This document shows, piece after piece, positions 11,482 through 42,734 of a DNA stretch of 64,000 bases; within the stretch, counting starts at the first letter, position 1; each line of letters starts with the position of its first letter. The position numbers were made by a program, and so were the translations under genes. The stretch is from a virus (lineage: Duplodnaviria; Heunggongvirae; Uroviricota; Caudoviricetes). The notes under the pieces were generated by a model. The model was given only the letters and a program-made list of their open reading frames with translations, was not told the origin of the DNA and made no database searches. The stretch covers positions 22,201 to 86,200 of IMG/VR virus record IMGVR_UViG_3300037471_001733. One strand, given 5' to 3'.

Positions 11482-11756
11482 TCGGCAGCCTTCCCGTCAC
11501 CGGCACGCGCGCGGATGCCCATCAGGCCCAGGCCCAGCGCCAGCAAGCCGCCGACGATGAAGCCAGCCGGCAGGGAGTACAGGCCGGTGCCATAGGCAAC
11601 AGCCCCGGCGCCGCCCAGCGCCAGCATGTCCGGCATCAGAAAGGCCAACAGTTCGCCGCCGGCCGCAATCAGGCCCAGCATGGCGCGGCCAAGGGTCAAC
11701 ATTCGGCGGGCCAGAAATGTCCTGGCACCGGCGATCTTCGTTCGCAGGTTTTTCAC
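11478..11756 (-). CDS. small membrane protein (hypothetical)
   Basis: 92 aa ORF with two hydrophobic helices between terminase and portal; overlaps both neighbours by 4 nt. Confidence 0.35.
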   Translation of the reverse strand: MKNLRTKIAGARTFLARRMLTLGRAMLGLIAAGGELLAFLMPDMLALGGAGAVAYGTGLYSLPAGFIVGGLLALGLGLMGIRARAGDGKAAE

Positions 11757-13513
11757 GGCGTCAGGACTTCCCAGAATGACTTTCCAGTGGACTCGGTGGT
11801 TCTGGACATCAAGCCCACGGCCATCACAGCCGCCACGATGAGGTCGATGCGGCCCGTGGCCTTTTCCTTGCTGAGCTTGCGGTTCTCGGCGTCATCCATC
11901 ACCGTCACCGCGTTGCTCGCACACCAGTTGAAAACTGGGTGGTCGTTGTGCGCCAACTCGTTGTTGAGCAGCATTCGCTCGAACTCTTCAACGGCTGGCG
12001 AAGCCTCTTTGTAACCTTGCCCGAACGCGACCATGGGCGGTAGGCTGATGCCTTCGTCGTCGGCAAGCGCCAGCAAGTCTTCGATGCGCCAGCGGTCGTA
12101 TGCGACGCCCTGGATCTCGAATGCCTCGGACAGCGCGGACAGCCGCTGCAGCACGTTGCGCTTGCTGATCGCGCGCCCCGGCGTGGTGTCCAAGTGCCCG
12201 GCAGCTTTCCACTGCACGTAGGGCACTCGATCGGTTTCGGCCTTCTTCTGCAGCCCCTCATCAGGCAGCCAGGCGAACGGCACTAGGTGCCACGGCTCGC
12301 CTTCCTCTTGCGGCTCAACCAGCAGCACCAGCCCCGTAAGGTCGGTGGTGGACGACAGGTCCAGCCCGGCCCAGGCTCGCCGGCCGCGCAGGTCTTGCCA
12401 GTTGAAGGTGCGAATCGCACTCTTCCAAACGTCGGCCGACAGCCACGGCGAATCGGCATCCGTCCACTGGCAGAAATTCAGCCGGCGGACGATCGCCTCC
12501 TTAGACGGCATGCCGCGCGCTTCGGTCACCTGCTCGCGCAGGTACTTCATGCCCGGCAGATCGGCGTCCTGCAGCGAAGGGTTGGCCTTCACCCAGCACG
12601 ACTCGTCCGAGAAAGGATCCTCGCCTTCATCTAGGGCGCACACGAAACTGAAGAACGCATCGTCCTCCAGCGTCCCCGCTGCGACCTTTGCGCCGTACTC
12701 GTGGTACGCCCAGCACGGCCCCCGTTTGTCGGAGCCGCTGTTGGTGATCATGAAGATCAGCGCCTGCCGCCGGCTCTTGGTGCCGGCGCGCATCATCTCC
12801 ACGACCGTGTTGGTCTTGTGCTCGTGCAGCTCGTCGATGAGCGCAATGTGCGGCCGCGGGCCGGACTGCCCATCGTCCGAGCTGATCGGGCGGAAGAAGC
12901 TGCCGGCCTGCAGGTAGGCCAGGTTCCACACCCGCTCGCCCGTGCCGCTCTTGGTCAGCCGCTTAGCGAGTTCCGGCGACTGGTCCACCATGGCCACCGC
13001 GTCGCGGAAGAGGATCATGGCCTGATCCTTCTTCGTCGCCGCAGCGTAGACCTCTGCGCGCGCCTCGCTGTCGGCGGTCAGGCCAAGAAGCCCAATGCCC
13101 GCCGAAAGGGGCGACTTCCCGGAGCCCTTGGCCGTCTCGACGTAGGCAACACGGAACCGCCGCCAGCCGTCAGAACCCTTCCAGCCGAACAGACTGCCGA
13201 TGACGAATTTCTGCCACGGCAGAAGCTCGAAGGGCTTTCCCTCAAAGTCGCCGCCGTTGAGCTTCAGGACGTTGCGGTAGTACCGCAGCGCCTTCAGGGC
13301 GGTCTCCAGGTCCCAATTCAGGCCGCGTGCCGGGCCTTTCTCCAGGTCGCGCAGGTGGCGCGCGCATGCCGCGCGCACATGCGGGCCGGCGATGCGTTTG
13401 CCGTCAACGACGGATTGGGCGTACTCGGTGACCGGATCGTCACCAGTCGGGACGTCAGCCGAAGAATTCCTGTAAGTGGTCTTCCTTTTGGTCGTCGTCG
13501 GCGTTTTGGACAT
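11753..13513 (-). CDS. terminase large subunit (Terminase_1 family)
   Basis: 586 aa; Walker A 'VETAKGSGKS', 'ALIDELHEH' and C-terminal nuclease region. Confidence 0.85.
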   Translation of the reverse strand: MSKTPTTTKRKTTYRNSSADVPTGDDPVTEYAQSVVDGKRIAGPHVRAACARHLRDLEKGPARGLNWDLETALKALRYYRNVLKLNGGDFEGKPFELLPWQKFVIGSLFGWKGSDGWRRFRVAYVETAKGSGKSPLSAGIGLLGLTADSEARAEVYAAATKKDQAMILFRDAVAMVDQSPELAKRLTKSGTGERVWNLAYLQAGSFFRPISSDDGQSGPRPHIALIDELHEHKTNTVVEMMRAGTKSRRQALIFMITNSGSDKRGPCWAYHEYGAKVAAGTLEDDAFFSFVCALDEGEDPFSDESCWVKANPSLQDADLPGMKYLREQVTEARGMPSKEAIVRRLNFCQWTDADSPWLSADVWKSAIRTFNWQDLRGRRAWAGLDLSSTTDLTGLVLLVEPQEEGEPWHLVPFAWLPDEGLQKKAETDRVPYVQWKAAGHLDTTPGRAISKRNVLQRLSALSEAFEIQGVAYDRWRIEDLLALADDEGISLPPMVAFGQGYKEASPAVEEFERMLLNNELAHNDHPVFNWCASNAVTVMDDAENRKLSKEKATGRIDLIVAAVMAVGLMSRTTESTGKSFWEVLTP

Positions 13514-22725: not shown

Positions 22726-22956
22726 ATGAGCACCTTACCGCCGCGCACGCCAGAGAACATCAAAGCCTTCCGCCAGCGTGCCGGCTGGACGCAGGAGAAG
22801 GCATGCGAGATGGCGTGCATCCACGACCGCCAAACCTGGCGTAAGTACGAAAACGGCACGCTCAAGATGAGCGAAGAGCGCTGGCGGCTGGCGCACTTTA
22901 TGGCCAACCTGCACCCCGACTTCGACGTTCGGCCGCGTACCAAGGCTGCGGCCTAG
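22726..22956 (+). CDS. XRE-family helix-turn-helix regulator (candidate repressor of the TGTAG-N9-CTACA operators)
   Basis: 76 aa; 'IKAFRQRAGWTQEKACEMACIHDRQTWRKYENG' HTH_XRE signature. Confidence 0.7.
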   Translation: MSTLPPRTPENIKAFRQRAGWTQEKACEMACIHDRQTWRKYENGTLKMSEERWRLAHFMANLHPDFDVRPRTKAAA

Positions 22957-22989
22957 CCTTCGCCCTCTGAGTACCGCCGGGAGGCGGCG

Positions 22990-23334
22990 TCAACCGTTTG
23001 GGTTCTGTGCCAGCCAAGCCCGGATCATCGCCTTGACCGCGGCGTGCAGGCCGTGTGGCGCGTAGACGCCACGCACTTCCTCGATACCTCTTTCCTTGAG
23101 CAGGGCCCTTCTTGCTCGATTCCTCTCTGTCGAGCTCTTCCCCGAAGGGGCTTTCGCGGTGGCGTTCATGAGCAGTTCCGTGCCATCGATTTTCTTCTCA
23201 GGCAAGGAGCAGGGGGCCAGTTCGCACTCTGCGGGAGCATTTGAGGGGGGCGGTTTGTTCTCGACCATTTGGCATTGACCCGTCGCGCGCGACGGTCCAT
23301 CATTCTTCGCTTTTCGACGATCAGAAGCCGCCAT
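22990..23334 (-). CDS. ribbon-helix-helix-like small DNA-binding protein (start possibly internal at ~23166)
   Basis: 'KSSTERNRARRALLKERGIEEVRGVYAP' resembles RHH/antitoxin-like S.AER.R.YR.R....G...V.VW.P motif. Confidence 0.45.
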   Translation of the reverse strand: MAASDRRKAKNDGPSRATGQCQMVENKPPPSNAPAECELAPCSLPEKKIDGTELLMNATAKAPSGKSSTERNRARRALLKERGIEEVRGVYAPHGLHAAVKAMIRAWLAQNPNG

Positions 23335-23433
23335 AAGTTGTGATGCGGCCGGAGTGCGCTAGTTGCAAGAACTATCAATTGGCATTCTCAAGGCGCAAGC
23401 GTGTCTTGCCAAGACTTTGTTGCACAGAGAGCG

Positions 23434-23449
23434 GCATGGATGCCGCTTT
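23434..23449. promoter_or_regulatory. perfect 16-bp palindrome GCGGCAT-GG-ATGCCGC in divergent intergenic region
   Basis: seen in sequence. Confidence 0.35.
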
Positions 23450-23568
23450 TGCGTTTGTGCAATCACCTCGAAAGGTTCCTGCCAGAGGATGCCGCCGATT
23501 GCCCACTATGGGGCAGGAACCAGTTCCACAATCGAAGCGCCACGCACTACGAAGAGTGGAGTTGCGCC

Positions 23569-24279
23569 ATGGACTGCGGCAAGAGAAGAACATGGGAGTG
23601 TGGCGTGACAACGAACTCTAAGAGGCTTTCTGGTAGACCATCTTTTAATTGGTCTATACCTGAGCCAGAAGAAGTTAAAGAAGTTAGATTGAAAGCCAAT
23701 TTGTCTCAGAGAGAAGCTTGTAATCTTTCTGGGATTAAAGAAGTAATGACTTGGAGTAATTGCGAAACTAGGAGAGCCGATGGCACTCCTAAGGCCCGCA
23801 TGGACCCAATTAGATGGGAATATTTCCTTCTAATAGTTGGACAACATTCCAAATTCGTTATTCTTCCGAGACTCGGGGTTGAACAGCCAAGAGAGGCGGC
23901 AGCTTTAACTAGGAAAGGTCCGTCTCTGCCTGGGGAGAACATTACTTTCGCAGTCGAGAGCCGAACTAGTGAAGACGAGTGGCGCTTGGTAGAAGGCGGA
24001 CAGTTCACAGCTCTGACTGCGGCATGTGTGGCCATAGACACGATGGTTGCCTGCAGGAACCTAAATGAACTAAGGGTGTCGCGTTACTCAGGTGGCGACT
24101 TCGTGATGGCAGTGCATGGGCCTGGTGTCTCTATGGACGAAGGCCCGAAGCGTTTTACCCATGCAAAGGCTGCGCCATCTCGAAGGACTGGGACTGACAG
24201 GAACGGAGCAGACCCAGGAGACCCAGATAATGATGGAAATGGAAGCAGAAATTCCAATGGTTTCGACCCTCAGGATTGA
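23569..24279 (+). CDS. HTH_XRE-domain protein with uncharacterised approx. 150-aa C-terminal domain, encoded in a low-GC island
   Basis: GGAG RBS; 'VKEVRLKANLSQREACNLSGIKEVMTWSNCE' HTH; AGA/AGG/TCT/AAT-rich codon usage unlike the rest of the window. Confidence 0.6.
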   Translation: MDCGKRRTWECGVTTNSKRLSGRPSFNWSIPEPEEVKEVRLKANLSQREACNLSGIKEVMTWSNCETRRADGTPKARMDPIRWEYFLLIVGQHSKFVILPRLGVEQPREAAALTRKGPSLPGENITFAVESRTSEDEWRLVEGGQFTALTAACVAIDTMVACRNLNELRVSRYSGGDFVMAVHGPGVSMDEGPKRFTHAKAAPSRRTGTDRNGADPGDPDNDGNGSRNSNGFDPQD

Positions 24280-24306
24280 CATTCCCCGAAATAGGGAAGC
24301 CCAGGA

Positions 24307-25227
24307 TCAGCCACCTTGGGCATGCAGGAACCTTCGCATTTCTCGCTCCACCTCGCCGAGCATCTCGCTCATGCGGTCAAGCATGTGGCCCGCAAAGCGG
24401 CGCTGGACATCGGTCTCGCCAAGCGACTCACGAACCAGGCCGGTGCCTCGGCAGAAGCGGCACTTCATCTGCAGCGCAGAGCCGTAGGCACCCTGGGTAT
24501 CCTTCCCTCCTTTCTTGCCGACGCGCGGCTGCGATTGAAGTACCGATCCGACGCCGCAGCACGGACCACAACGGGGATTGAGCCAACTGCGCAGCACGCG
24601 GCCTGTGATCGCCGCCACAGCCTTGTCGGACAGGCTGCTTTGCTGGGCTGCCTTGGTGACCCGTCGATGCCATTCTTGATGCCGAGCTCGCAACTGCTCG
24701 TCGGTCTCGCCCTGCCGCCGTCTCGGTTCGGCCGGCAGCCGGAGTCCCTGCAGCGGGAACTTTGAGGCTTCGATGGTTGCCCAGCGGAACAGCGCGTCGC
24801 GCGCCGACTCCAGCGTCCTCAGCTTCGACAACATCAGCGCTTGCTCGGAGATCGCCTCGCGCTTAGCTTGGTCGCGCAGCGCTTCAAGGTCGGCGATCTT
24901 CTGCTCAAGCACCTCCTTGTCCTGCGCCGCCTGGCTCAGCATCAGCCGCGAAACCTCCTTCGCTGCCGACTTGATCGCCTCCTCCAGTTGGATCTGACGC
25001 CTCAAGGCCAGCGCGTGATCGCCTTTCACGCCGTCCCACTCGACGTGCAGTCTGAGCAGCAGTGGCGCAAGCGCACGCTCGGCATTGCCGCGATACCGGC
25101 TCTCGACGCAGCCGGCGGCGATGAGCAAGTCGACGTCCGTGATGCGTAGTCTGTTGACTTTCAAGCGCTTGGCAGTGATGGCCTGGCCGTACCGCTCTTC
25201 AATGGTGATAGGGGCGTCGGAAGTCAC
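24307..25227 (-). CDS. DnaJ-type zinc-finger (2x CxxCxGxG) protein with coiled-coil, at the lambdoid Q position
   Basis: 306 aa; 'CGPCCGVG' and 'CRFCRGTG' motifs; last gene of early-right operon. Confidence 0.55.
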   Translation of the reverse strand: MTSDAPITIEERYGQAITAKRLKVNRLRITDVDLLIAAGCVESRYRGNAERALAPLLLRLHVEWDGVKGDHALALRRQIQLEEAIKSAAKEVSRLMLSQAAQDKEVLEQKIADLEALRDQAKREAISEQALMLSKLRTLESARDALFRWATIEASKFPLQGLRLPAEPRRRQGETDEQLRARHQEWHRRVTKAAQQSSLSDKAVAAITGRVLRSWLNPRCGPCCGVGSVLQSQPRVGKKGGKDTQGAYGSALQMKCRFCRGTGLVRESLGETDVQRRFAGHMLDRMSEMLGEVEREMRRFLHAQGG

Positions 25228-25278
25228 AGCGAATCCTCTCGGTCCTGCTTCAAATTTCCAGATTGACGGAGACGCCGG

Positions 25279-25749
25279 TCACGGCTTTTTGGCGGATTGC
25301 ACGGCTTCTTGGTAGATGGACTCGTAGATGCCGCGCAGCCAGGTGGTCACGATGGTCTTGGCCAGGAGCAGCACGTCACCAATGACGTTGCTGGCCATGC
25401 TGATGGGCCACACGATCATCCAGTGCACGATACGGCCAGCTTGGCGCGCGGGAGACAGGTGGGCGTAGCTTTCCCGTCCGGGGTTGTTGTCCACAGCATC
25501 GCGCACGAAGCGGCGGTAGCGCCAGATGCTCCAAACCACGCCGATCAGCACATAGCCTATGGCCCCGTAGAGCACGTGTTGCGGCGGCACCTGGAAGAAC
25601 AGATAGGCCACGAAGCCGGCGATCACCGCGAAGAAAAGCGCAAAGCCGGTGGACTCCATGGCCTCGCAGAAGATGGCCACGAGGACCAGCGCAGAGAGGG
25701 CGATCCAGTTGAGCAGGTAGCCTGTGACCAGGCCCATCACAAATTCCAT
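25279..25749 (-). CDS. 4-TM inner-membrane protein
   Basis: 156 aa; four hydrophobic helices; GGAAGGAA RBS; preceded by 320-bp intergenic region with hairpin. Confidence 0.5.
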   Translation of the reverse strand: MEFVMGLVTGYLLNWIALSALVLVAIFCEAMESTGFALFFAVIAGFVAYLFFQVPPQHVLYGAIGYVLIGVVWSIWRYRRFVRDAVDNNPGRESYAHLSPARQAGRIVHWMIVWPISMASNVIGDVLLLAKTIVTTWLRGIYESIYQEAVQSAKKP

Positions 25750-26070
25750 GTCGATTCCTTCCAGAGTTTTCGATCAGGGCATGGCCCTGCTGATATTCGG
25801 CACGATCAGGCGTATTCGCTTCCGATTTGGCCCGGAGCGTCCGAGGCTGAACATTGATTTTTGTGATTGCTAGCCGAGGGACATCTAGCGAACCCGCAGT
25901 GTCCGCAAAGGTTCCTGCGCAGCACCGTGATGCCAGGCGGCAGCCACGAGATCGGTCCCGGGCCGGCAAGCCTAGCTTTGAGCCGCCGCGCCTCGTCGAC
26001 ATCGCATTGGCGGCACCAGCACGCCCCGAACTGCTTGCGCATGGGGCTGCCTCGGCCTGAATTCGGGCGC

Positions 26071-40302: not shown

Positions 40303-40880
40303 GCCTTGGCTCCTTCAGCGGGCTCGTCTTTTCGGCGTTGGTCAGCTTCGCCAGCCAAGTGCAGGCCATGAATCGCTAGCGCCTCACGAATCCTGGCGAT
40401 GGATGTGGGTCCAATGCCGCCGAACCGGCGCCGAGTCAGGTCCGCAGGAGTGAGCCTCGTCAGGGCGCCAATCGTTCGCACGCCATTGCGGTCCAAGGAG
40501 CCGGTCACCCTGGGCGTGAGGCCATCAAGCGCGGCGGGCGAGAAGGCCAGGAAGCCGACGTCATCAGGGTGCGGGCCCTGCTCGTGGCGCGGCTCGATGA
40601 GCGGCGGACGGGCCGGAGACGGCGCAGGAGCGGGCTCGGGCGCCGGCACAGGGATCGTGAAGCTCACCGGCTTCAGGCGCACCTTCAGCATCTCGTCGGC
40701 CACCATGTACGACACGATGGCAACCTGCTCCGGGCTGATGTCGCCGCCGTAGGCGCCCAGCAGGGACTGCATGGCACCCTCAGCGAGCTTGTCGCGCAGC
40801 TTGGTCAATTGCTTGCTCATGCTCCAGCCCTCCGCGCAGTCGGCCGGTAACTCTCCCAAGGAAACGGCACCCAGCGACAC
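40299..40880 (-). CDS. protein with C-terminal RNA-polymerase alpha-subunit CTD-like helix-hairpin-helix domain
   Basis: 193 aa; 'IGALTRLTPADLTRRRFGGIGPTSIARIREALAIHGLHL' matches alpha-CTD HhH pattern ([27 protein letters not shown]). Confidence 0.5.
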   Translation of the reverse strand: MSLGAVSLGELPADCAEGWSMSKQLTKLRDKLAEGAMQSLLGAYGGDISPEQVAIVSYMVADEMLKVRLKPVSFTIPVPAPEPAPAPSPARPPLIEPRHEQGPHPDDVGFLAFSPAALDGLTPRVTGSLDRNGVRTIGALTRLTPADLTRRRFGGIGPTSIARIREALAIHGLHLAGEADQRRKDEPAEGAKA

Positions 40881-41650
40881 GTCTCGGCCAGTCGATCAAA
40901 GGTGCGCTCACCAACGAACTGCTTGAAGCCCGCCGAGTTCTGGTTCGTGAGCAGGATGGTCGGCTTGACATCGCGGTAACGGCCGTCCAGCACGTCGAAG
41001 ACGATGTTCTGCTCGCTATCGGTGCCGTACTGCACGCCAACCTCGTCGATGACCAGCAGGTCCAGGTCCGTCAGGTAGCGCAGCACCTGCGTCTCGCTCT
41101 TCTCGCTGTCGCGCCGCCACGTCTCGCGGATCATGCGGATCAGGTCCATGCAGGTCACGTAGCGCACATCCGGCGAAAGCAGCGACTGCAGGACAGCGCC
41201 AGCGAGGTGGCTTTTGCCGGTGCCCGGCTTGCCGGCCAAGATCAGCCCGGAGCCCTTGCGCGAGTGCTCGGCAAAGTTCTCCGCGAAATCGCGCGTCACC
41301 GTCAGCGCATGGCGCTTCTCGTCGGTGTCGGCCACGAAGTTGTCGAACGTGCGGCCGATGAAGCGCGTCGGGATCATGGCGCTGGCCAGCATCCGGCTAT
41401 GGCGCTCTTCAGCGTCGCGGCGCTTTTGCTCAGCCTCGGCCGCGCGGTCCTCCTTGGCCTTGGCCTCTTCGCAGGCAGGACAGCGCGACCAGATGCGGCC
41501 GAAGATGTTGCGGCTCGTGTAGTCCCCGTGCTCGAGGCAAGAGGCTGCGCGCTCTTCCACCTGGCGCCTCACGGTGTCAGACAAGCGATCCATCGTCATC
41601 CACGCCTTCGCGGTAGTCCTTGGAGTCAAAACCAGCGTGCTTGCTGGCAC
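40817..41650 (-). CDS. DnaC/IstB-like AAA+ helicase loader
   Basis: 277 aa; Walker A 'GKPGTGKSHLAGAV', Walker B 'LLVIDEVG'. Confidence 0.7.
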   Translation of the reverse strand: MPASTLVLTPRTTAKAWMTMDRLSDTVRRQVEERAASCLEHGDYTSRNIFGRIWSRCPACEEAKAKEDRAAEAEQKRRDAEERHSRMLASAMIPTRFIGRTFDNFVADTDEKRHALTVTRDFAENFAEHSRKGSGLILAGKPGTGKSHLAGAVLQSLLSPDVRYVTCMDLIRMIRETWRRDSEKSETQVLRYLTDLDLLVIDEVGVQYGTDSEQNIVFDVLDGRYRDVKPTILLTNQNSAGFKQFVGERTFDRLAETCRWVPFPWESYRPTARRAGA

Positions 41651-42734
41651 CTTGGCTGCCGGCGACCGGCAGTTCGTCCATCCAGCGCCCCTGGTTCAAC
41701 CAAGTAGACGGATGCGGGATGTACTTGCCGCCATCGCGCGTCCAGTCAGTGGACTGCTTCTGCACCTTGATGGCATTCAGCATCGTGGCCAGCAGCTCAA
41801 CTCCAACTTGGCGCTTTTCAAAGGCGCGACGTGCCGCGTCAATGCCGACCTTCCTCGGGTATGCGCTCCAGAAATCCTCGAATCGACCGTCACCCCCAGG
41901 GGGGTTAGGGGGGTATTGGTTCCCTTGACGGTTAATTGACGGTTCTCCGTACCGTTTTTGGGACTGCTTCTCGGGAAAAACGGTACCGCTTCCACGGAAA
42001 AACGGTACTGCTTCACCATCCTCCGAAGCTGTACCGTTTTTGGCATAGCTTCCCAGACGTCGAGTCCGCTCCGCGATTGTTGCCGCGCGCAACTTGCTGG
42101 GAGTGCCTTCGTTCTTGCACAGCGGGTCCAAGTCGTACTGGCGGAACAGCCTCATTTCTGCCGCGCTGGCCTCCTCCGGCGTTTCAAACACCTCCAACAC
42201 CTCGCGCACCAGCAGGCGGCCGGCAGCGATCTGCTCGCGCGGCCACTTGCCGCTTCCACGATAGGCGTCTGCCTCGGGGTCTCCGCAAAAAGAGCGCTTA
42301 CCCAGGTAGAAATTGCCCGTCTCCGGGTCTGTCACTCGGTACGTGTAGTGCGTGGCTGACGCCGTAGGCAGGCCAAGCAGCCGATAGACCGGGATGGAGC
42401 CGGTCACACCAACGCGCTTGCCCGTGTCCATAAGCAGACCGGCGTCTTGCAAGTTCTTGATGTTCTTGATGAGAGTCTTGCGGTCGCAGCAGGTGTCCTG
42501 CTCCAGCCGCAGGATGCTCGGGTAACAGAACCCGAACTCGTCGGCGTAGTTGGCAAGGCAGACCATCAAGAACTTTTCGCTGGACTTCGGCATGTCCAGC
42601 TTGAAGGCGTAGGCGAGGGCTGGGATGCTCACAGCGGACCTCCCCGCACGTTCCATTGCCGCGCAGCCTCTACTGCAGCCTCCATGGCGTCTTCCAGCAC
42701 CACATCGGGCCCGTGCGACTCGCACTGCCAGCAC
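41577..42734 (-). CDS. phage replication initiation/replisome-organiser protein (N-terminal HTH_36 domain)
   Basis: 385 aa; 'FLMVCLANYADEFGFCYPSILRLEQDTCCDRKTLIKNIKNLQDAGLL' plus conserved C-terminal 'FEDFWSAYPRKVG...YIPHPSTWLNQGRW'. Confidence 0.65.
   Translation of the reverse strand: MLAVRVARARCGAGRRHGGCSRGCAAMERAGRSAVSIPALAYAFKLDMPKSSEKFLMVCLANYADEFGFCYPSILRLEQDTCCDRKTLIKNIKNLQDAGLLMDTGKRVGVTGSIPVYRLLGLPTASATHYTYRVTDPETGNFYLGKRSFCGDPEADAYRGSGKWPREQIAAGRLLVREVLEVFETPEEASAAEMRLFRQYDLDPLCKNEGTPSKLRAATIAERTRRLGSYAKNGTASEDGEAVPFFRGSGTVFPEKQSQKRYGEPSINRQGNQYPPNPPGGDGRFEDFWSAYPRKVGIDAARRAFEKRQVGVELLATMLNAIKVQKQSTDWTRDGGKYIPHPSTWLNQGRWMDELPVAGSQGASKHAGFDSKDYREGVDDDGSLV

Follow-up and report, generated by a model that had tools for sequence, protein, structure and literature searches.

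A candidate operator-controlled two-domain regulator in a conserved divergent cassette of a GC-rich tailed phage

In a 64,000-nucleotide stretch of tailed-phage DNA (positions 22,201 to 86,200 of IMG/VR virus record IMGVR_UViG_3300037471_001733; hereafter the window), one gene stands out from its GC-rich surroundings as AT-rich and full of rare arginine codons, which raises the question of whether it is a recent import or an established part of the phage, and of what it does. The open reading frame (ORF) concerned, 23569–24279 on the plus strand, has a GC content of 0.492, falling to 0.426 over 23610–23900. Measured in 300-bp steps across the 64 kb (mean 0.638, standard deviation 0.039), the dip exceeds 5 standard deviations and is the GC minimum of the window; every one of the lowest 300-bp segments lies within 23426–23800 (minimum 0.427). 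The GC content at third codon positions (GC3) of this target gene is 0.43, compared with 0.65–0.9 in neighbouring ORFs. AGA and AGG supply 17 of its 23 arginine codons but 28 of 405 across 16 large window genes, AAT supplies 9 of 13 asparagine codons (25 of 184 in the 16 large genes) and TCT supplies 9 of 17 serine codons.

The original prediction, made from the sequence alone, had read these features as a low-GC moron acquired recently by horizontal transfer and carrying defence/exclusion or regulatory cargo. GC and codon-usage plots, which it had proposed as a check, show a strikingly atypical composition and bear out the unusual preference for AGA, AGG, TCT and AAT; the drop in GC is real, but the block extends for about 1 kb instead of the ∼700 bp claimed, beginning near 23250 in upstream regulatory and intergenic DNA and ending sharply at the target stop codon. 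Here, we propose that the target gene encodes an operator-controlled two-domain transcription regulator within a conserved divergent cassette, a reading to which we assign a probability of about 0.55. The cassette itself is best placed, on the evidence available, among phages and integrated elements of Burkholderiales-like hosts. Its core features are the following.

22990–23268, minus strand: small basic protein; 92-residue ORF divergent from the target, with a conserved 59-residue core from ATG 23169
23275–23303, plus strand: sigma-70-type promoter P1 (TTGACC, 17 nt, CATCAT) pointing at the target, found by a consensus scan
23280–23295, no strand: 16-bp perfect palindrome CCGTCGCGCGCGACGG in the P1 spacer, a candidate operator
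23605–24279, plus strand: target gene; 224 residues from a conserved GTG, or 236 if ATG 23569 is also used

The control region carries much of the argument. P1 is conserved at 13 loci with the palindrome in its spacer. When seven related loci (loci are referred to by L numbers) were aligned, beginning in the upstream region and ending at the start codon, a single block proved strongly conserved: TTGACC, [C/T]GT[T/C]GCGCGC[A/G]AC[G/A], N3 and CAT[G/C]AT; the proteins of these seven loci are only 40–50% identical, yet P1 and the palindrome are near-invariant. P1 and the operator share 33 identical nucleotides with the sister allele (L015–L019) despite saturated synonymous sites, and both elements are also found in L021. 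Two operator variants occur: GTCGCGCGCGAC in the window, L004 (with one mismatch), L015–L019 and L021, and GTTGCGCGCAAC in L002, L003, L005, L006 and L008. The palindrome before the gene had been noted in the original prediction and does exist, although upstream of the block as then delimited. It has one copy in the window, which fits local rather than global control. Since the window holds two 16-bp perfect palindromes and shuffled sequences average 1.5, its presence is not beyond chance alone; its significance derives from conservation in related loci and not from rarity.

Position is conserved as well, with reference to two flanking genes.

22726–22956, plus strand: single-domain helix-turn-helix (HTH) protein of 76 residues, a paralogue of the target HTH of the Aca10-like subtype; last gene of the upstream plus-strand block
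24307–25227, minus strand: convergent neighbour of 306 residues with two CxxC pairs, marking the conserved cassette position

Homologues of the small gene hold the same divergent position in L002, L005, L006/L012, L008/L013, L015–L019 and L021, which represent six independent contexts. The 306-residue gene lies downstream of the target in four phage lineages: its product is 52% identical to that of L008 9249–10175 in a MAFFT alignment (40% by tblastn), and counterparts follow the target in L004 (71% over 48 residues) and L021 (39%). Counterparts of the HTH paralogue precede the cassette in L006, L008, L012, L015 and L021, and placement between the HTH-paralogue block and the 306-residue gene recurs in the window, L008/L013, L004/L015 and L021. 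None of the close relatives recovered lacks the cassette (a small sample, few with long flanks), and scans with the 306-residue flank for cassette-free relatives returned just the L008 contig and one truncated contig. The layout originally described, a divergent small gene (22990–23268) on one side and a convergent gene (24307–25227) on the other, is as claimed, but its interpretation as a moron between two phage genes does not hold: every close relative recovered has the same promoter/operator and small gene, four lineages share the downstream neighbour, and a gene that should be absent at this position in relatives is present there in L008/L013, L004/L015–L019 and L021. Because promoter, partner gene and position all recur in relatives, the comparison indicates that the gene is part of a promoter–operator cassette ancestral to several lineages and is no insertion peculiar to this phage.

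One further cassette copy, found via the small protein, lies in Azohydromonas aeria (Burkholderiales; L012, VIDQ01000056.1). Three tandem tyrosine-recombinase genes (L012:2081–5279) stand ∼4 kb from it, and DUF932 and a 644-residue ParB_N protein are encoded on its other side; the host region is an integrated element that is not obviously of the same phage type.

The recent acquisition proposed in the original prediction is argued against by the age of the AT-richness. Across the family, GC3 is 0.43 in the window, 0.44 in L004, 0.52 in L021, 0.55 in L003, 0.71 in L008, 0.72 in L005, 0.79 in L006 and 0.84 in L002; the L015 target has 0.48 between flanking genes of 0.72–0.86. At residues identical between the window and L015, 38 of 69 four-fold sites differ (55%; a Jukes–Cantor distance of ∼1.0, or about one substitution per site), and the four-fold-site GC is 0.36 and 0.32 in the window and L015 alleles, respectively. 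Because these sites are saturated and GC is still low in both alleles, a recent unameliorated import is disfavoured; synonymous turnover without drift towards the genomic GC3 of ∼0.8 points to an AT-richness that is old and maintained, either by selection or by continued exchange within a pool of low-GC alleles. Thus, a gene with a freshly imported look in GC and codon usage appears to be an old, syntenic regulatory part whose odd composition is itself conserved, a caution for genome scans. The question then becomes why a high-GC phage lineage keeps one regulator AT-rich and rich in rare arginine codons, for which dose limitation, H-NS-like silencing and DNA-level signals are candidate answers. 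We had also considered L004 as a low-GC donor phage carrying a pseudogene and dropped this idea, as longer sister contigs show the gene to be intact and its flanks to be GC-rich. At codon 13 (374–376), L004 reads TAA where five sister contigs from other metagenomes (L015–L019) have TTA (Leu), either a single-contig nonsense variant or an assembly error.

The encoded protein is an HTH protein of unfamiliar architecture. Searches of Pfam (E ≤ 0.1), PHROG, NCBIfam and PADLOC gave no family match at a useful threshold, and family and profile searches with it found no defence, toxin or enzyme signature. Its structure was modelled with AlphaFold from a shallow alignment of nine sequences; a single-sequence AlphaFold2 model was unusable, with a predicted local distance difference test (pLDDT) score of 34. 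The model, with residues counted from GTG 23605, comprises four parts.

23635–23844, plus strand: N-terminal HTH domain, Aca10-like by profile and fold; residues 11–80, four helices, pLDDT 71–91
23845–23934, plus strand: conserved linker (GQH..FV.LPR.GV..P......R.G), low confidence, pLDDT 44–54
23935–24114, plus strand: C-terminal orphan domain of ∼60 residues; residues 111–170, beta-beta-alpha-beta-beta, pLDDT 80–86
24115–24276, plus strand: variable C-terminal tail, predicted disordered, pLDDT below 50

The N-terminal model has the four-/five-helix lambda-repressor-like HTH fold. When the family profile was compared with PDB sequences, Aca10 (7XI5) matched with an E-value of 5e-4, Aca3 with 0.11 and C.Csp231I with 0.32; Aca1, Aca2 and AcrIF24 are also among the fold or sequence matches of the HTH, but Aca10 is the best of them, so that both sequence and structural similarity to Aca10 are present. 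The family is very small. Three non-self homologues were found in a 5.8-billion-cluster collection, and a profile search of 1.84 billion cluster representatives gave ∼8 further full-length or fragment members, about a dozen in total. The same profile aligned ∼100 short proteins at profile positions 21–96 only; in a sample of ten of these, most have sub-threshold-to-significant Pfam matches to HTH_31, HTH_3 or the MqsA C-terminal domain. Among 50,697 GenBank phages, there is neither near-identical DNA nor a protein homologue of the target at any level of identity, and a metagenome scan with the target protein recovered only one stand-alone HTH protein. Within the linker, columns G, H, P, R, P and R are near-invariant, and its GQHPxFVL portion also follows stand-alone HTH proteins of the same subtype. 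The tail differs in length and sequence among relatives and carries a 150-nt insertion in L004/L015.

The C-terminal domain, with invariant G, A, A, R and Y columns across the family, had been called uncharacterised and remains an orphan after sequence, profile and fold searches: there is no PDB sequence match and no significant fold match in PDB or BFVD, in searches run with the two-domain model, where weak matches of this domain could be masked. A match to a routine regulator domain, which had been put forward as the observation that would speak against a special role, was sought and no such match was found. An apparent outside relative, P0086, was rejected as a spurious hit to a repetitive protein; HMMER finds none outside the family. 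We thus describe a very small family that joins an Aca10-like HTH to a domain without relatives, together with a promoter–operator pair and a partner protein. Of the cargo types first suggested, a regulatory one fits best, while the defence function finds no PADLOC model match. As a side observation, three proteins (P0012, P0013 and P0019) contain two tandem HTH domains of the target's subtype (motif MDPxRWxxFxLxxGxHP), and P0012 ends in an H-NS C-terminal domain; judging from these sequences, the Aca10-like HTH subtype appears to be reused in larger nucleoid-protein-like architectures.

These elements suggest a mechanism. From left to right, the cassette consists of the small basic gene on the minus strand, P1 with its candidate palindromic operator, a leader of ∼300 nt with a conserved stem-loop, GGGAG and GTG, and the two-domain gene. 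RNA polymerase would start from P1 near 23310, and P1 would be shut off when a dimer occupies the palindrome, which lies between −35 and −10, giving feedback on the level of the regulator. Either the two-domain protein, in the manner of Aca and controller proteins, or the small divergent protein could be this dimer, or both could bind; the C-terminal domain may add higher-order assembly or bind a partner or signal, and the AGA/AGG codons together with the structured leader would keep the dose low. The parallel with Aca proteins is close in outline: Aca10 is a dimer that binds a 19–21 bp palindrome over its promoter (PMC9410881), and in aca operons a DNA motif typically covers the promoter while the 5′ untranslated region contains an RNA motif (PMC13551039). 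By this analogy, the two-domain protein is the obvious candidate for binding the operator.

Several observations weigh against this reading. The first concerns the HTH assignment. The earlier HTH_XRE label stands in that profile and fold both indicate an XRE-type HTH, but the target fails the Pfam HTH models: against HTH_31 it scores 11 bits (E 0.57) with a cut-off of 27, where HTH_3 and HTH_31 have gathering scores of 23–27 bits. HTH_31 is matched by 3 of 12 family members, the best with E 7e-4 and still under the cut-off. The second concerns the models, as the fold of the C-terminal domain depends on the nine-sequence alignment and on searches with the two-domain model. In addition, both the small gene and the operator are missing from the distant member L020, and the dimer-interface glycine of Aca10, G49, is I or V in the target family. 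The last concerns which protein reads the operator. Which operator variant a locus carries goes with the clade of its small protein and not with the clade of its target. In L021 the operator is of the window type and the small protein is 57–70% identical to those of that group, but the target is equidistant from both groups (42–50%); nor do the two operator groups differ in the target recognition helix, EVMTWSN. Six positions that discriminate the small proteins fall within a 10-residue N-terminal basic segment (TERNRARRAL versus TVRSRRLRDE). This covariation suggests the small protein as a possible reader of the variable positions in the operator, but physical linkage of the small gene and operator alone could give the same pattern.

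Among the alternatives, an immunity-type switch survives best, although we regard it as improbable. Here, the two-domain protein would be a CI-like maintenance or superinfection-immunity repressor and the small protein its Cro-like or antirepressor-like counterpart. AT-rich, rare-codon coding is commonly seen in phage immunity regions. However, compared with the CI/Cro switches of lambda, 434 and P22 or the CI–MOR switch of TP901-1, the target has no S24 peptidase or known oligomerization domain (Peptidase_S24 has no match in any of 12 family members, and the C-terminal domain of ∼60 residues matches no PDB chain and is too small for an S24 autocleavage domain), the single operator copy in the window contrasts with these switches, and the small partner protein has no HTH. 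The genome position is not that of a canonical immunity region either: the cassette is upstream of the HNH–terminase block, far from the divergence of the arms at 42–49 kb (DnaC-like; RecT, YqaJ, RdgC) where a lambdoid switch would be expected, and the 64-kb window has no integrase at E ≤ 1e-4.

Somewhat less probable again is a bifunctional anti-defence protein, in which an Aca10-like autorepressor is joined to a defence-inhibiting effector, as in the anti-CRISPR/Aca fusions AcrIIA1 and AcrIF24, and an early burst of expression driven by a strong promoter is followed by shut-off at the palindrome. The best-matching HTH relative being Aca10, with Aca1, Aca2 and AcrIF24 listed too, the palindrome within the promoter as in aca operons, and an orphan domain of very narrow distribution all agree with this view. 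In addition, the phage has other anti-restriction functions (Lar and 7-deazaguanine synthesis), and its relatives carry DUF932, ParB_N and methyltransferase genes upstream. On the other hand, fold searches show the C-terminal domain to be unlike known anti-CRISPR or anti-defence proteins, and the non-HTH parts of AcrIIA1 and AcrIF24 have no sequence or fold similarity to it; the HTH of AcrIF24 is C-terminal, so that its domain order differs from that of the target. Position and partner are kept across lineages at 40–50% identity, near the 52% of the backbone gene, which resembles a backbone regulator more than fast-moving cargo, and rare codons speak against an expression burst.

The comparison with Aca10 itself shows where the analogy ends. 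Aca10 (anti-CRISPR-associated protein 10) of Pseudomonas citronellolis (PDB 7XI5) has 65 residues, a single domain and the last place in an acr operon. The target has ∼150 extra residues (linker, orphan domain and tail); it is the only gene behind its promoter and has a divergent small gene as its partner. The two operators share no sequence relationship and Gly49, as noted above, is not conserved. Between P1 and the start codon there is no gene in the target's direction, and no neighbour matches a known family. Because it is neither single-domain nor in an acr operon, the target protein is not a strict member of the Aca10 family; by analogy, it would act in the mode of an Aca-/controller-type autoregulator. 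Controller (C) proteins are single-domain and usually activate and repress through a pair of operators arranged in tandem upstream of −35, and, in contrast to C.Kpn2I, C.AhdI, C.Csp231I and C.BclI, the target has no adjacent restriction or modification genes.

A related version, which we consider about as doubtful as the anti-defence account and if anything slightly more so, has the C-terminal domain as an effector, for example a host-defence inhibitor or host-takeover factor, fused to an Aca10-like autorepressor and held at low dose by AT-rich, AGA/AGG-rich coding that selection would have kept while the synonymous sites turned over completely, by the structured leader and, in L008 and L002, by a putative −1 ribosomal frameshift. 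If the domain were an effector, the principle of Acr–Aca fusion would extend beyond CRISPR-associated contexts, and a throttled effector, if true, would be a new kind of tightly dose-limited bifunctional phage protein. The putative frameshift sites (L008:7987–8042 and L002:423–478) comprise a strong ribosome-binding site with GTG, C_CCA_AAA at nt 12–18, a 5-nt spacer and a hairpin. The hairpins have free energies of −20.2 and −21.8 kcal/mol (z −3.1 and −4.2) in L008 and L002, respectively, with one compensatory pair. In both loci the frame of the two-domain protein is −1, without an in-frame start upstream of the conserved PKR[FL]AGRA, and the shifted product would start VT..PKR.AGRA, resembling VTTNSKRLSGRP in the window. 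The L008 site has an identical sequence in two independent assemblies (L013 and L014). From these features, the site five codons past the start is a candidate for −1 programmed ribosomal frameshifting.

The original account, a recently acquired low-GC moron that gives a lysogen single-gene defence or exclusion, is now quite unlikely. The gene does resemble phage morons in having its own predicted promoter, in being read against the flow of its neighbours and in a GC content and codon usage extreme for this genome, and low-GC genes in a high-GC background also occur at L003, L015 and L021. It differs from them in forming a unit, with a partner and an operator, that predates the separation of several lineages and keeps its place in all close relatives recovered. 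Its composition is maintained, not decaying: about one turnover of the four-fold sites since divergence from the L015 allele has brought no rise in GC. At E ≤ 0.01, PADLOC has no family for the target, for three homologues or for six proteins encoded nearby, and no canonical terminator lies 3′ of the gene, where the terminator scan called no site and only a 5-bp hairpin (24283–24299) was read by eye. An antitoxin-like HTH protein of the MqsA/HigA style, with a C-terminal domain that neutralizes a partner toxin, is very unlikely, since both neighbours are on the opposite strand and leave no co-directional partner, the one partner that is conserved is a small basic protein encoded divergently, and no toxin family was detected among the neighbours.

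Returning to the operator-controlled regulator, its start codon and leader contribute the following features.

23304–23604, plus strand: predicted untranslated leader of ∼300 nt from P1 to the start codon
23421–23461, plus strand: stem-loop with a U-rich 3′ side; core AGCGGCAUGGAUGCCGCU at 23430–23447, then UUUGCGUUUG
23594–23598, plus strand: GGGAG ribosome-binding site, 6 nt before GTG 23605

Two in-frame starts are open, ATG 23569 with GGAG (23558–23561) 7 nt upstream and GTG 23605 with GGGAG 6 nt upstream. The 236-residue gene with a GGAG ribosome-binding site described in the original prediction does exist as an ORF, but the conserved start is GTG 23605, because the block GGAGTGTGGCGTGACAAC over the ribosome-binding site and start is identical between the window, L004 and L015–L019, because an 8-nt indel in the sister allele (six contigs: L004, L015–L019) shifts the ATG out of frame and into a stop, and because a ribosome-binding site with GTGAC(A/T) recurs in L002, L006 and L008. 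Conservation thus indicates that the 224-residue protein is the shared product; this phage may also use the ATG. A longer extension to GTG 23401 (292 residues) was dropped for its lack of conservation in relatives.

The leader has stops in all three frames of L015 and so no conserved ORF. It was also considered as a structured RNA family, which was dropped as the fold of the whole leader is unexceptional (z −1.07) and Rfam has no match at E ≤ 1 in 22900–24500. The stem-loop at 23421–23461 has a free energy of −21.8 kcal/mol (z −4.0), was not called by the terminator scan and includes a 28-nt core block that is 100% identical in L004 and L015–L019; from its sequence it is a candidate attenuator or stability element. 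Two repeats were also assessed. The 9-mer GCAGGAACC has exactly five copies in the window, all within 23474–25918; two of them form a 10-nt inverted pair (23474/23512), and others lie at 24053 and 24324. A role as operator or cassette-border repeats was rejected: the motif is absent from the sister allele and 8 of 40 simulations produced clusters of four 9-mers per 900 bp, so that chance is the probable explanation. The exact 11-nt repeat CGCCACGCACT at 23067–23077 (small gene) and 23538–23548 (leader), a length reached in 0 of 200 shuffles, would make the two RNAs complementary; antisense pairing between them was dropped because the repeat is not conserved in L015.

The 76-residue HTH protein matches Pfam HTH_31 (E 1.1e-6), is 32% identical to the target HTH (E 9e-8) and has Aca10 (7XI5) as its best PDB sequence match (E 0.19). 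The small divergent protein, for which a 114-residue reading from 23334 is also open, has no Pfam or PDB relative. Neither Pfam nor PHROG has a family for the 306-residue neighbour; its middle part resembles a coiled coil, and it carries two DnaJ-like CxxCxGxG motifs (CGPCCGVG and CRFCRGTG).

The phage origin of the window is evident from matches to the terminase large subunit (11753–13513), portal, major head protein and HNH endonuclease. The nearest terminases come from phages of Ralstonia (66%), Halomonas (64%) and Klebsiella (58%) that are temperate or derive from prophages; no tRNA genes were found in the window. Further genes encode a DnaC-like loader, RecT, YqaJ, RdgC, Lar, QueC, a QueD-like and a QueE-like protein. 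Among the ORFs of 14.5–64 kb, Pfam matches include QueC, PTPS (QueD-like) and radical SAM (QueE-like) together with DUF6884, DUF5131 and Lar, and the phage DNA is, to judge by this gene content, probably modified with 7-deazaguanine and accompanied by restriction-alleviation functions. Just past the DnaC-like loader gene (40817–41650), direct and inverted repeats of GTACCGTTTTT and AAAAACGGTAC at 41949–42052 form a candidate replication origin or operator array.

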